64,000 nt of DNA from Eledone cirrhosa (lineage: Eukaryota): positions 130,076,001 to 130,140,000 of the forward strand of contig OZ024745.1 in the NCBI GenBank assembly GCA_964016885.1, written 5' to 3'. A program made the position numbers and the translations under genes. The notes under the pieces are model-generated. The model was given only the letters and a program-made list of their open reading frames with translations, ran no database searches and had not been told where the DNA came from. Shown here one piece after another: positions 16,779 to 55,614 of this stretch (the stretch's first letter is position 1; each line of letters opens with the position of its first letter).

Positions 16779-17410
16779 CTAAGGCGGGTAAAATTCCCGA
16801 GATCCATGGACGAGTTCTCTCCAGCGGTCTCTGTCCCTCATTATCGCTGCCATGTCCTGCGTCTCCAACAGACCAGTGTCTGTCCTTAGGGCATCAACAT
16901 ACGTTAACCTTGGTCTTCCTCTTCTAGTGTGTCCATGTAGGGGCTCCCAAAGGAGCACTGAGTGCAATGTCAACTCTGGATGTCGGTGAGCATGTCCAGC
17001 TAACCTCAATCTCCTCTGTGTCACTTTTGAACTGACTTTTGGGATGCTCCCATACAGCTCTGAGTTTTTCATCCTCAGTGTATACTGATTAATGTTCAGA
17101 GTCATCCTCAACATTCTCGTAGAGAATGTTGAGAAGCCAGAGGGGATCACTAATGTAGGCGGGAAGCCGCTAGAATTGGTTGAGGGCTTCCTGTATTTGG
17201 GAGCAAAGATTGGGAATACGGAAGATGATGTGGTTGAGAGGAAGAGCAAGGCCTGGGCGGCGTGCCACAGCTTGAGATCGGTGTGGAAGTCGGACCTTCG
17301 TAGAGACCTGAAAGTCCGCCTCTTCATTGCTGTAGTGGAGTCTGTGCTGCTGTATGGGTCTGAGACTTGGACACTGACCAAGAAACTCACTCAGATGGTA
17401 GATGGGTGCT
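16779..17410. mobile_element. RTE-group LINE 3' fragment with 5' inversion
   Basis: Plus strand FLYLG...VESVLLYGSETWTL...VDGC continues on the minus strand as TRMLRM...RLRLAGH...RGRPRLTY...DRDRWR. Confidence 0.9.
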
Positions 17411-22872: not shown

Positions 22873-23255
22873 ATGTCGAACCACTTTGCTACTGGGTGGA
22901 TGTGCATGACCACCGGCATATCACAATGGTTGCATAAGCAATAATTGCGTAGACATCTGACGAAGTCACATGAATAATTATGTAACAGAAATGTATATAA
23001 TGAAATAAACAATTGTGGTGATTTAATCCCGTCTTAACTACCGAGTTCAAATCCCTCCGAGGCTGAGTACAAATCCCGCCGAAGTTAACTTTGCCTTTCA
23101 TCCTTACGGGGTCAATAAAATAAAGTACCAGTAATGCCCTGTGATAATAGCTGGCCTTGTACCAAAGCTAGAAACAATTATTTGATATATATATATACTT
23201 GCTTTTATATTTTAAAAACGAAATCGTTTTATATACATACATACACACACACACA

Positions 23256-23812: not shown

Positions 23813-23876
<64 letters not shown>

Positions 23877-23877
23877 A

Positions 23878-24534
23878 AAACACTAGAGAGAGATGCAGTA
23901 CGCCATCAATAAAACAGGGTGCCCATGATTTTCTCTCCTTTGAGCACATTATTTACAGGGAACGGCAAGAGTCTATGGCTCCGTTAATGTATCGTCATGT
24001 TCCTTATAACAGTCTTTCTCCGCTCACTCTGTTTGGTTGAGTACACTTCTCTGAGTGGTTTTGGGCTGCCCTTTCAAGCAGCTCGTCTCTCAGAGGCCAC
24101 TGGTTCACTGCCCTTAAATACGCCGTGGCTTCTCTCTCCCACGTGTAGTTGGACGGCCAGTTTAAAAATTCTCTTAGTGTTGTCTGAAATGTATAGCCTA
24201 ACACACGCTGATGAACCTGGGTTATTTCATTTCCGTCAACAACTTACTGGCGAAACAGATCACTTTGGATTTGTACGTGTGTTATATAGCTATCGAGGTA
24301 TTTGTTTACGCTTTAATTTATATTTTTAATTATCGTGTCTATAGTCTGCCTTTCATAGGTTATAGATTCCATACACTGCTGGTTTTTCCCTGTTTTATTG
24401 ATGGCGCACTGTATCTCTCTCTAGTGTGTTACCTTTTCAACATATTGTATTTTAAAGTGCCCAGGATTTCCACTCCTTTGAGCACATTATTTACAGGGAA
24501 CGGCGAGAGTCTATGGCTCTGTTAACGTATCGTG
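23878..24534 (+). mobile_element. Non-coding HHR element with PLE-type architecture
   Basis: ~75-bp direct terminal repeats (23919-23995 and 24457-24533), a 5' inverted copy (23880-23919) of 24388-24428, a central intact HHR and (TA)n flanks. Confidence 0.8.
24199..24284 (+). ncRNA. Type I hammerhead ribozyme, intact core
   Basis: TAACACACG-CTGATGA-stem II (CC.TGGGTT...AACTTA..GG)-GAAA-CAGATC(loop)GATTTG-TA-CGTGTGTTA. 9-bp perfect stem I, 6-bp stem III, GUA cleavage triplet at 24273-24275. Confidence 0.9.
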
Positions 24535-24543
24535 ATATATAAG

Positions 24544-24574
<31 letters not shown>

Positions 24575-24651
24575 GTATGTATATATATACACTCATGTAC
24601 CAATAACCACACACACACATTTATATATATATATACATGCCCACACACAGA

Positions 24652-24695
<44 letters not shown>

Positions 24696-24736
24696 TTGTA
24701 TGTATGTATGCGTGTGTGTGTATGAATATATATAAT

Positions 24737-24922
24737 AATTGTATCTATTTTTGGCACAAGGCCAGAAATTATACCAGTACATTACTGGTACTTTATTTTA
24801 TCGACCCCGTAACGATGAAAGGCAAAGATAACCTTGGTGGGATTTGAATTCAGAACGTAAAGGGACGTAACTATGCTGTAAATCATGGCGTCCGATCCTC
24901 TACCGATACTGCCAATCCACCG
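24737..24922 (-). mobile_element. SINE family 1
   Basis: Consensus match. Confidence 0.88.
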
Positions 24923-25926: not shown

Positions 25927-25981
25927 ACTGCTATATATATTTCGGTGACAGCCATCTTTGGCTGTGACCTCTTCAGGCAGT
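25927..25981 (-). ncRNA. Type I hammerhead ribozyme, intact core (left arm of fold-back)
   Basis: Minus strand ACTGC-CTGAAGA-GGTcACAGCCA aaga TGGCTGTcACC-GAAA-TATATA-TA-GCAGT. Confidence 0.85.
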
Positions 25982-41513: not shown

Positions 41514-43640
41514 CCATGCAAGATACCTGGTGGAGAAAAAAGGCTGATGAAATCCAGAAGGCCTCAGGTAGTCATGATATAAAGCTCTTATACAATCTGC
41601 TCAGGGAGATATATGGTCTAACCAGTCCACAAATATCACCACTTCCTTCCAGAGACGGCAAGGAATTGCTCAGAGACCCGAAGGAAATCCTGATTAGCTG
41701 GCATGACCACTGTGATGAATTCCTCAACAGACTATCAGAAATCGATGATGAGTTCATCCGGTTGATTCCATCTAGACCCACATTACCTGGCAATGGCTGA
41801 TCCCTCTTCATTTGATGAGGTGACGGAGGCCATTGCCAAATTAAACAGTGGCAAATCACCTGGAATGGATGGACTGAGTGCTGAGATCTTCAAGTTTGCT
41901 GGTGATAACTTCGTAAACCGCCTCACTGACCTCTTTGTGAATGATTGAAATGAAGACGATGTACCGCAGGATTGGAAAGATGCATTGATGATGGTACTTT
42001 ACAACGGAATGGGAGCGAAAGATGACTGTGGCCACTACAGAGGTATTTCACTGCTATCTGTGACTGGGAAGATCTTGTGAAGCATATTGTTGGACAGATT
42101 GATAGAGCACATTTCTGTTGAGGTACTTCCTGAGTACCAATGTGGCTTTAGGAATGGGAGAGGTACTGCTGACATGGTCCCCTCAGCCAAACAACTTCAA
42201 GAGAAATGCATTGAGCAGTGCTTAGATTTAAACCAACGTTTTGTCGACCTAACCAAGGCATTTAACACCGTAAATCGGAAGGCTTTGTGGGTTATTTTGG
42301 AGATATTGGACTGCCCTGAAAAGCTTGTGAAGAAACTCAAGCTCTTTTACGATGATATGCTCGCATGGGGAAATATCGGGGGTAAACTCTTTGAGCCAAT
42401 CTCGGTTTAAAATGCAGTCAAGCATGTTAATATACCTTATAATGCGGAATGGTGTTCTTCATGGCCTTCAAGGATGGTCAACACGGTATCTATCACAGAT
42501 ATTGCAGTTCCGGCAAGCTGTTCAATCTCAGGCGTCGCATTGCCAACACTAAGGTACTGAGTACCTTGATAATTTAATTTCTACATGCAGATTATTGTGA
42601 TCTCTTTGTACACTCTCAGAGTGACAAGCAGCACGTTATGGACTACTTTTCCAATGCGTGCTTTGGGACTGACAATCAGTCTGAAGAAGACTGTCGTCAT
42701 GTACCAACTTGCTCCGGATAAGGTTTTCAATAACCCTTCATATACGGCTAAATGCTGAATGTTGCTGACAGATTTGTATATTTGGGGAGTACCCTGGATG
42801 TGACCTGCTCTCTGGATGCAGAAGTTGGTCTACGTGCTAGTAAAGCAAGGGAGTCATTTGGAAGGTTCGGCGACCGTCTTTGGTGCAGGTGAGGAATCAC
42901 AATGAAGATCAAGGTGAAAGTGATGCCTCTTGTGTACTGTCAGCATTGATGTATGCATGTGAAACATGGGTTGCCTACAAGCGGCATATTAAAAAATTGG
43001 AAACATTTCAGCAGCAGTGTCTCATGAAGATGCTCGGAATCAAGTGGCAGATGCATGTGAGTGATGTTGAGGTCCTTGGAAGAAATGAGTGTCGGAGCAT
43101 TGAAAGTATCATCCACCAGCGACGATTGCGATGGACCGGACACTTCTGCAGAATGGAGGATGATCGAATGGCGAGCATCTCACAAACCAAAGCTCCGAAT
43201 CAAAGATTGTGTAAAGGACTCATTGACAAAAATTGGTTTGATGGTGGCTGACTATGTGATTGAAAGAGAAACCTGGCGTGGAATGGTGAATGATGGGGTC
43301 CATAATTTTTAGAACAGGTGCCTAGAGCACGAGAAGATCAAACGGGATGTGCGTAGGCAATGCCCTGGTATATCTCTCGAAACGATCGGTGTCTCCAATG
43401 AATTGGTATATCCTGAGTGTGGAAATATTTGCTTGAGCAAATCTAGTCTCAGGAGCCACAGTCGCAGCCATGTTCAAAGAAAACCAGTGAACTATAATCT
43501 CCACGGTATGGTGAAGGGTCACAGACAACCTGATGCAAAATCTGAGGCTAGCCAGATCCGTAGTTGTCGTCAATGTGCGAATTCTTTTTAAGTTTCTGGC
43601 CGGCTTCAAAAGCCATATCCGAGCGTCACACATCTGAATC
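41514..43640 (+). mobile_element. Decayed RTE (BovB-like) LINE: RT plus C-terminal zinc-finger-like region
   Basis: PEYQCGFRNGRGTADM, FVDLTKAFNTV, LMYACETW, RRLRWTGH; many stops and frameshifts. Confidence 0.92.
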
Positions 43641-45427: not shown

Positions 45428-46366
45428 AGTCTCTTTGTATGTTGATGTACGCGTGTGTATGTGTTTGTGTATATATGTATGTATGTGTGTGTGTGTGTGT
45501 GGGTGGACCAGTATTTTTTTCCCCCTCGTAAAATGGTGTACATTATTCGATTTTTTCAGTAAAATCGGTTCTCTTAATAGAACATCAAAAATCTTAACAA
45601 TAAAAGGTGTGAAATGATATTCACTATATATATATACACACATACATATATTCACTACATATATATATATATATATATATACATATATACATACATATGT
45701 ATGCACATATATTTTTTTGTATTGCACCATAGAGCATGTGTGTTTACGTGTGTCATTGTGTTTATATGTGGGTAGAGATGTGTGCTGATGTAGGTATCTA
45801 TGTTGACGTGTGTATGTTGTGGGTTCGTCTTAGGGAGAAGTGTTTAGACGGGGTCCGTATTTGTTAATGAAGTAAGATTCCTTGCTGATGCGCTGGGTGT
45901 GGGTGGCATTATCTTTAAATTTGTAGAGGGGAAAGATTCTGAAGTTGGGATGATTTTGGGCGGCACAGGTATCAATGTGTTCACTTAGTGGTATTTTCCT
46001 GTATTCCCGTATTTTAATTTGGGATCTATGGACAGTCATGCGTTGGCGGAGGCTGTTTTTGGTCTGGCCTATGTATTGTTCTCGACAACCTGAACAAGTT
46101 AATACATATATTAGATTTTCCGATGCACATGTGAAATTGTGTTTTACTATAAAACGTTGTCCATCTTTGAAATAGAATTCCGAACCCTCTATTAGGTTGA
46201 TGCAAATGCCACAGTTGGGTCTATCGCATTTTTTTACTGTGGGTTTCGTTGTTGTGGTTGGCAGTACTTTGGCATGTGTTAAGATGTTTTTCATTGACTT
46301 GGATTGTCTTTTGCTCTTTATGATATCGTGTGTTCGTAGAATTTGGTTCATTCTATGGTCCTTTAT
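44661..46366 (-). mobile_element. 5'-truncated Penelope-like element (Neptune-like), endonuclease plus 3' region
   Basis: GIY-YIG ORF followed by ~1.15 kb of non-coding sequence shared with the copies at 53.4-56.6 kb; ends in (TA)n. Confidence 0.85.
45830..46366 (-). CDS. PLE GIY-YIG endonuclease domain (fragment, open frame)
   Basis: CDRPNCGIC linker; NLIYVLTCSGCREQYIGQTKNSLRQRMTVH; KESYFI...LN at the C-terminus. Confidence 0.88.
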   Translation of the reverse strand: MKDHRMNQILRTHDIIKSKRQSKSMKNILTHAKVLPTTTTKPTVKKCDRPNCGICINLIEGSEFYFKDGQRFIVKHNFTCASENLIYVLTCSGCREQYIGQTKNSLRQRMTVHRSQIKIREYRKIPLSEHIDTCAAQNHPNFRIFPLYKFKDNATHTQRISKESYFINKYGPRLNTSP

Positions 46367-46623
<257 letters not shown>

Positions 46624-54624: not shown

Positions 54625-55122
54625 CTTAGGGAGAAGTGTTTAGACGGGGTCCGTATTTGTTAATGAAGTAAGATTCCTTGCTGATGCGCTGGGTGTGGTG
54701 GCATTATCTTTAAATTTGTAGAGGGGAAAGATTCTGAAGTTGGGATGATTTTGGGTGGCACAGGTATCAATGTGTTCACTCAGTGGTATTTTCCTGTATT
54801 CCCGTATTTTGATTTGGGATCTATGAACAGTCATGCGTTGGCGGAGGCTGTTTTTGGTCTGGCCTATGTATTGTTCTCGACAACCTGAACAAGTTAATAC
54901 ATATATTAGATTTTCCGATGCACATGTGAAATTGTGTTTTACTATAAAACGTTGTCCATCTTTGAAATAGAATTCCGAACCCTCTATTAGGTTGATGCAA
55001 ATGCCACAGTTGGGTCTATCGCATTTTTTTACTGTGGGTTTCGTTGTTGTGGTTGGCAGTACTTTGGCATGTGTTAAGATGTTTTTCATTGACTTGGATT
55101 TTCTTTTGCTCTTTATGATATC
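54625..55122 (-). pseudogene. Second copy of the PLE GIY-YIG domain with a 1-bp frameshift near the end
   Basis: Near-identical to 45830-46326; GTGTGGGTGGC changed to GTGTGGTGGC. Confidence 0.88.
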
Positions 55123-55123
55123 A

Positions 55124-55380
55124 TATAGTAAAACACAATTTCACGTGTGCATCGGAAAATCTAATATATGTATTAACTTGTTCAGGTTGTCGAGAACAAT
55201 ACATAGGCCAGACCAAAAACAGCCTCCGCCAACGCATGACTGTCCATAGATCCCAAATCAAAATACGGGAATACAGGAATATACGACTGAGTGAACACAT
55301 TGATACCTGTGCCGCCCAAAATCATCCCAACTTCAGAATCTTTCCCCTCTACAAATTTAAAGATAATGCTACCCACACCC
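55124..55380 (+). pseudogene. Inverted partial third copy of the GIY-YIG domain
   Basis: Reverse complement of ~54690-54946 (MTVHRSQIKIREYR...FPLYKFKDNA). Confidence 0.85.
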
Positions 55381-55413
55381 ACACAAAAAAATATATGTGC
55401 ATATATATATGTA

Positions 55414-55471
<58 letters not shown>

Positions 55472-55614
55472 ATATATGTGTGTATATATATATATAGTGA
55501 ATATCATTTCACACCTTTTTTTGTTAAGATTTTTGATGTTCTATTAAGAGAACCGATTTTACTGAAAAAATCGAATAATGTACACCATTTTACCAGGGGG
55601 AAAAAAATACTGGT

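Follow-up and report, generated by a model that had tools for sequence, protein, structure and literature searches.

A 538-bp non-coding hammerhead repeat of Eledone cirrhosa bears the insertion marks of Penelope-type elements and is a putative retrozyme

The DNA analysed here, referred to as the window, is a stretch of 64,000 nucleotides on contig C5 of the 3.0-Gb genome of Eledone cirrhosa. An (AT)n microsatellite within it is interrupted by an insertion composed of an inverted 44-bp piece, one 538-bp unit and 80 bp further; we number the unit from m1, at window position 23919, so that m538/m1 denotes the unit junction. The left (AT)n target tract (23827-23877) is followed by the inverted piece (23876-23919, minus strand), which is the reverse complement of 24388-24431 (m470-513) over 44 nt at 93% identity; the outer end of this second arm falls 19 nt short of the m532 site usual in the family, possibly through a small later deletion. 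The full non-coding unit follows on the plus strand (m1-538, 23919-24456) and contains a type I hammerhead motif (24192-24291, plus) with a predicted cut after 24275, as well as a predicted 9-bp hairpin (m504-529, 24422-24447, plus) directly ahead of m532 (24450, plus), the first fixed 3′ end of the family, which is internal in this copy. From there an 86-nt tail (24451-24536, plus) runs to the second fixed end, m80 (24536, plus), its final 80 nt (m1-80) repeating the start of the unit directly (23919-23998 and 24457-24536; 91% alike at a spacing of 538), and the right flank is an (AT)n/(AC)n microsatellite (24535-24693), neither flank being assigned a strand. Direct repeats of about 75 bp some 540 bp apart, a short inverted internal segment at the 5′ end and (TA)n flanks had all been anticipated by the original prediction. 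The locus is a 1.15-unit, 5′-truncated copy of an abundant non-coding 538-bp repeat. Two opposite-orientation copies of a short common repeat (23063-23198 and 24718-24853; 83% complementary) also flank the element and are apparently unrelated insertions.

A search of the genome with the element returned 2,742 candidates, the best of 40 scored being 90-93% alike, and an exact pattern of the hammerhead core gave 1,181 genome matches versus none in the reversed control; a sister family, 70% alike, numbers 1,233 candidates. From 196 sampled stretches we obtained five clusters of at least four members (188 sequences including the window copy), the remainder being ungrouped. These five subfamilies lie 13-29% apart and each is about 8% diverse internally, so the amplification was not very recent; at 27 of 357 columns the window copy does not carry the letter most frequent in its cluster. 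As had been expected, there is no real ORF: the longest stop-to-stop frame of the window copy spans 113 aa, a length reached by 23 of 500 shuffles. A peptide starting at an ATG within the hammerhead core was considered and rejected, since its frame is not conserved across the subfamilies (open for at least 75 codons in 34/139, 0/22, 7/12, 0/11 and 0/4 copies of the five), and the same frame had no codon-position bias (15/18/22). Neither the unit nor its sampled insertions yielded an ORF with both reverse transcriptase (RT) and GIY-YIG endonuclease, as carried by an autonomous Penelope-type element (PLE). The core pattern had 0 matches in viral contigs and, with respect to a tRNA-like head, ARAGORN found no tRNA in the 64-kb window. 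In three runs of contigs from one sample, of unstated type, the sequence appeared as no more than a repeat, which speaks neither for nor against its expression. A literature search returned no paper on the 538-bp family; Repbase and Dfam lay outside its scope, and the family may already be catalogued there. To the host the unit is an ordinary repeat, and nothing points to a host function.

The hammerhead had been described as intact, with a full stem III. All catalytic letters are indeed present (core at 24208-24214 and 24252-24255, with C3 at 24208 and G12 at 24252), and both stem I (9 bp, 24199-24207/24276-24284) and stem III (7 bp, 24255-24261/24268-24274) are formed around the predicted cut, which corresponds to m357. 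The description fails for stem II, which is weak (two G-C pairs only, then U.U) and has A.C at 10.1/11.1, and for the predicted structure, the lowest-energy fold of the window copy being an inactive one (-23.3 versus -17.8 kcal/mol for the active-like fold, that is 5.5 lower); nor did Rfam report a hammerhead at the motif, whether at the gathering score or at E up to 10, where simple-repeat noise was all that appeared. When dinucleotide shuffles of the unit were scanned on both strands with a relaxed hammerhead descriptor, 1 of 2000 matched, which argues that the motif is not a product of chance. Among 116 copies not picked by the core pattern, 89 retain all 11 invariant letters in type I topology, and 10.1/11.1 is A.C in 84 and A-U in 30. 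The G10.1-C11.1 pair, a canonical type I feature that closes stem II and is called highly conserved in PLE hammerheads (Cervera & de la Pena 2014, PMC4209133; this and the other publications are cited from their available portions), is absent family-wide.

Over the five subfamilies, with their divergence of 13-29%, the core is invariant at 14 of 14 letters compared with 125 of 210 other columns (p 0.001), a degree of conservation inflated by the fact that three of the five came largely via the core pattern; subfamily B, recovered without that pattern, has the same core at 28% divergence. The hammerhead stems are invariant at 23 of 26 letters, with changes that are one-sided only and never compensatory, and hairpin m504-529 is invariant at 15 of 18, likewise with no two-sided changes. 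An 8-bp stem that would pair the m468-475 region with the tail is possible in four subfamilies and broken in B, and we do not claim it. Treated as a circle, the sense strand has a more stable predicted fold than its shuffled versions (z -3.5, 60 shuffles), reaching -135 kcal/mol versus -113 kcal/mol for the antisense strand. By eye, about 6 of the 84 insertions described below contain two full hammerheads in direct tandem. Copies of the kind termed 'active' among retrozymes thus occur in the family (for example L002/L009, a locus at 145.43 Mb on C1, L198 and L226); the window copy is not of that kind and, having a single hammerhead, could give rise to no unit-length RNA by double cleavage.

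The architecture of the insertions was read from two sets. One comprised 84 insertions anchored on the hammerhead (from the first 100 core matches listed, all on contig C1, with 4 earlier-sampled matches left out; the 88 loci covered included 4 duplicates, which were dropped), and the other, independent of hammerhead anchoring, comprised the first 90 listed of the 529 exact matches to the m532 end fused to ATAT. In the hammerhead-anchored set, m532 (59) and m80 (60) together account for 119 of 137 outer 3′ ends, and an AT repeat follows the fixed end in 106 of these 119, versus 9% of window positions. An (AT)n target masks any target-site duplication. An inverted arm is present in 54 of the 84 insertions, while 30 are direct. 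Where both ends of an inverted insertion are fixed, one site of each kind was used in 36 of 38 cases (binomial p 5e-9). Inverted partners were also found at 64 of the 90 m532-anchored loci, with 54 ending at m80 and 8 elsewhere, the remaining 2, scored at m538, being parsing artefacts. The tail between the fixed ends measures 86 nt in 61 of 67 distinct copies. The 5′ ends are scattered, with copy-specific truncation and redundancy of variable length; the 80-bp repeat that the original prediction had read as a terminal direct repeat is therefore not a feature of the family, and marks the truncation point of the window copy, by chance nearly coinciding with the tail. A direct m538-m1 junction is found in 67 of the 84 insertions, in agreement with the more-than-unit-length copies of a non-coding unit of about 540 nt that had been proposed, and arrays reach about 4.4 units as a single insertion (L226). 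Insertion lengths range from 280 to 2,467 bp (median 655, 84 insertions), and unit spacing over 29 distinct tandem junction pairs is 512-563, mostly 530-545.

A fixed 3′ end, variable 5′ truncation and partial tandems, the marks of PLE-mobilised sequences, are all seen in the family. That a hammerhead unit lands in (AT)n with a Penelope-type end pattern indicates that it was likely copied by a Penelope enzyme, and we hold it to be very probable that the unit is non-autonomous and PLE-mobilised. We infer that m532 and m80 represent reverse-transcription starts 1 and 2. As for the earlier proposal of a PLE RT acting in trans, the PLE-type insertion marks across the family speak for it.

The nature of the template was approached through 141 arms from the m532-anchored loci (3 duplicate loci dropped), of which 28 are longer than one unit, the longest measuring 1,298 nt. 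The cDNA passages stop within m354-362 in 2 of 86 cases versus 2.6 expected, and within m350-366 in 5 of 89 versus 4.9 expected, so that the template was read across the predicted cleavage site, as the original prediction had supposed; also as supposed, the repeat junction is away from that site, m538/m1 lying 181 nt from the predicted cut. The lack of excess stops at m357 argues for a template that was either a re-ligated circle or uncut tandem RNA, and against cut linear monomers as the main template. Further, paired arms copy the same sequence twice in 38 of 54 cases, which excludes simple twin priming on one linear RNA there. A conserved ribozyme together with the absence of a stop at the cut makes a circle the simplest reading, and we lean, by a small measure, toward a putative circular RNA as the template.

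A serious contender, to which we give somewhat under an even chance, is that the same non-autonomous PLE parasite is copied from a linear transcript that spans tandem source copies and stays uncut, or from read-through RNA, with no circle needed; the hammerhead would then cut rarely, late or only with the help of protein. Read-through of m357 is accounted for equally well in this way, and the double copying of one sequence in 38 of 54 paired arms would be expected from two linear RNAs as well. The non-canonical 10.1/11.1 pair, the competing fold and the fact that most insertions fall below 1.5 units, as the 655-bp median reflects, are likewise in its favour, and in vitro a PLE RT used unprocessed RNA (Frangieh et al. 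2024, PMC11167929). Hammerhead cleavage was dispensable for PLE insertion in the same in vitro work, and 8 of 9 Xenopus retrozyme dimers tested did not cleave (Li et al. 2026, bioRxiv 10.64898/2026.07.22.740005). Such dispensable or absent cleavage, the missing G10.1-C11.1 pair, the lack of compensatory changes and the small number of two-hammerhead sources all count against the circle. With only uncut templates, however, multi-unit sources should be worn down by steady 5′ truncation, short of being restored by a circle or by template jumping; arrays as long as that of L226 nevertheless exist, and the catalytic core is better conserved than other parts of the unit.

The overall explanation to which we give slight preference is therefore that of a 5′-truncated, variant-hammerhead repeat carried into (AT)n by a PLE enzyme, with a self-cleaved and re-ligated RNA circle as template. 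According to this proposal, a rare source copy of at least two units would be transcribed, its hammerheads would cut at m357 and the 538-nt monomer would be ligated; a PLE protein, likely a dimer, would bind the hairpin/tail region and nick both strands of an (AT)n tract. One cDNA would start at m80, the end of the tail, and the second at m532, each proceeding round the template to a random stop. Joining of the two cDNAs would produce the inverted 5′ piece, and a single cDNA a plain truncated copy. A point against the proposal is that microhomology is mostly lacking at the inversion junctions, 26 of 45 having a gap. A more specific version, in which a 538-nt circle with a hammerhead devoid of G10.1-C11.1 hijacks a dimeric Penelope-type enzyme at two obligatorily different priming sites 86 nt apart, is put forward as a speculative and on balance doubtful possibility. 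If it were true, the family would constitute an in vivo record of both PLE insertion ends being made by two coordinated reverse transcriptases, and would provide direct evidence, at the level of individual insertions, for the movement of retrozymes by PLE machinery.

That the inverted arm arose instead by cDNA fold-back with endonuclease trimming from one true start, or that the unit spread by DNA-level routes (satellite amplification, or as passenger of larger repeats), we consider improbable. Self-priming and endonuclease resolution have been argued for in print (PMC3846280 and PMC8557442, respectively), and near-perfect fold-backs do occur at 6 of 45 inversion junctions; at 39 of 45, however, different points are joined, and copies without an inverted arm terminate at one site or the other (m532 in 16 of 30, m80 in 12 of 30). 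One unit fragment has spread as a passenger in a larger repeat, but DNA duplication would not be expected to leave the unique flanks and the variable truncation seen in the dispersed copies.

The genome holds 10,597 GIY-YIG candidates. RT is encoded in PLE frames of 938 and 1,096 codons, of which the former also has a GIY-YIG match, and in these frames a C-x4-C-x2-C motif, ascribed to Neptune/Nematis (PMC8557442), precedes the endonuclease; judged by this motif alone, the coding PLEs appear to be of Neptune/Nematis type. Read by eye, several coding PLE families likewise terminate in (AT)n, using two sites separated by about 40-45 nt. BLAST and a DNA profile of subfamilies A and B against the window and 50 coding-PLE loci, a sample of these candidates, gave no clear shared sequence, the search returning, apart from a unit fragment nested in L065, nothing beyond AT-rich matches below 50 nt, several of them antisense, and 19 loci of a young coding PLE family contained no unit sequence. 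The last 70 nt of one PLE family (L108/L080) weakly resemble m465-532, at a level reached by 39 and 20 of 2000 shuffles; for three other coding PLE families the likeness of their ends to the unit was reached by 710-1,258 of 2000 shuffles. Two candidate partners were rejected: the L251 frame, a one-off junction in which an endonuclease-truncated piece of a young PLE is joined to m434, and the upstream sequence shared at L295/L320, which as a putative PLE body proved to be a larger repeat with a unit fragment and no PLE protein in 30 of 30 loci.

Whether the copies are simply the 3′ ends of long coding PLEs had been raised with the original prediction; 0 of the 84 insertions, the 67 junction-bearing ones included, enter an ORF, and head-to-tail junctions of this kind in 67 of 84 argue that they are not. 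The idea that they are the truncated remains (pLTR stumps) of some as yet undiscovered long coding PLE, although compatible with ends, tail, inversions and target like those of coding PLEs and with the PLE frame lying directly upstream of m434 at L251, is the least probable of all and largely refuted, given m538 joined straight to m1, a PLE protein within the sampled flanks of only 4/120, 4/84 and 4/90 loci (overlapping sets), an L251 frame that is cut inside the endonuclease while 19 of 19 other copies of that PLE are without unit sequence, and upstream flanks of 24 direct-only copies that share no common body except unrelated repeats.

Animal retrozymes are viewed as non-autonomous PLE derivatives with units of 51-972 bp, and have been reported from 31 vertebrates, 3 insects and 1 coral (Li, Clavereau & Pollet 2026, bioRxiv 10.64898/2026.07.22.740005); circles have been shown for the units of coral, mussel and axolotl, with mobilisation by PLEs proposed (Cervera & de la Pena 2020, PMC7229834), while PLE hammerheads had been defined, and circular templates proposed, earlier (PMC4209133). 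The present family shares with animal non-LTR retrozymes a non-coding unit, a type I hammerhead, a GC content under 45%, co-occurrence with PLEs and head-to-tail copies from monomers to multimers, and its 538 bp falls inside their size range. It differs in that its copies are for the most part scattered single insertions, each with its own PLE ends, and not long arrays, that its hammerhead is without G10.1-C11.1 and that it is known from sequence alone; fixed paired ends or a tail are not reported for retrozymes in the available text of PMC7229834 and of the 2026 preprint. The unit is likely a non-autonomous Penelope-type element that works like animal non-LTR retrozymes, its membership in the strict sense being putative; its hammerhead misses one canonical feature.

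With endonuclease-bearing PLEs (Penelope/Poseidon/Neptune) the family has in common 5′ truncation, partial tandems and an inverted 5′ arm (PMC8557442, PMC3846280, PMC11167929), as well as a tail at one end only, two end sites, AT-rich or (TA)n targets and a hammerhead in the repeat. In vitro, two internal RT starts bound a tail of 30-40 nt in one such PLE, with nicking and extension on both strands and a predicted dimer (Frangieh et al. 2024, PMC11167929), and a tail is often found at one end only (Craig et al. 2021, PMC8557442); inverted pLTRs, one-sided tails, (TA)n targets and non-autonomous PLEs are all described (PMC8557442; Arkhipova et al. 2013, PMC3846280; Goubert et al. 2022). The unit in turn has no ORF and an 86-nt tail as against 30-40 nt. 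Its hammerhead, with long stems I and III, also contrasts with the minimal dimer-type motifs of metazoan PLEs (PMC4209133), in which stem III is absent or 1-2 bp with a palindromic loop; the 7-bp stem III does not match that type. Non-autonomous Chlamys PLEs such as MRC1 (PMC8557442) are similar in being non-coding PLE dependants with pLTRs and head-to-tail insertions, but they resemble their autonomous partners at the 3′ end, whereas no such clear partner was found here, and the Chlamys clade is described in the available text as being without canonical hammerheads. Plant LTR retrozymes (PMC4918200, as described by Li et al. 2026) are likewise non-autonomous and ribozyme-bearing, with terminal redundancy; they have a type III hammerhead in true LTRs, PBS/PPT, a 4-bp TSD and mobilisation by Gypsy, while the unit has a type I hammerhead outside the redundant part, and redundancy of variable extent.

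The element class and its PLE link are already in print; new here are the 86-nt tail, the near-obligate pairing of both ends and the hammerhead variant. The published link between animal retrozymes and PLEs consists of co-occurrence and pLTR likeness (PMC7229834, bioRxiv 10.64898/2026.07.22.740005, in their available portions). Here, hundreds of separate non-coding hammerhead-unit insertions themselves bear PLE insertion marks, and the near-strict pairing of two end sites fits the two RT starts and both-strand extension seen for one PLE in vitro. A 0.54-kb, protein-free substrate with mapped predicted starts makes the origin of the inverted arm and the tail testable, and with the same substrate a circular template and cleavage by a hammerhead with A.C or A-U at 10.1/11.1 become testable as well.

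Several other repeats were encountered in the course of this work. Loci L321-L350 (for example L330, L333, L347 and L350) belong to a larger composite repeat with 96 exact matches of a 32-mer, which carries a fragment of the unit in 15 of 30 loci, often lacking the 5′ strand of stem I, with both flanks shared; part of it is another short hammerhead element with the same terminal letters before (AT)n. Loci L351-L370 represent a very young coding PLE family of 1,707 candidates, with copies 99-100% identical and about 25% like Neptune-type proteins, which terminates in (AT)n at two sites separated by about 45 nt, the first being preceded by a hairpin. Another hammerhead repeat has a 511-bp spacing (L101:8068 and 8579), a coding PLE is tandemly arranged with a period of about 6.5 kb and two different hammerhead motifs per unit (L109:3266-9777), and minimal motifs resembling a hammerhead were read by eye in the coding-PLE 3′ regions at L091 and L108; their cores are altered, A...C standing on either side of a 3-nt loop II in one and the core of the other being of U3/A8 type. 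In the window, 3′ fragments of a coding PLE with a zinc-finger-like motif and GIY-YIG endonuclease lie at 45830-46432 (minus; with a Pfam match), 54640-55140 (minus) and 55119-55547 (plus), the latter two as an inverted pair. The frames at 16779-17390 (minus) and 42844-43251 (plus) resemble C-terminal pieces of what are presumably LINE (RTE-like) proteins. Further hammerhead-like motifs, of other families, occur in the window at 25976 (minus), 38508 (plus), 57446 (plus) and 62606 (plus), at least two of them common to other loci, and hammerhead repeat families seem to be numerous in the genome.
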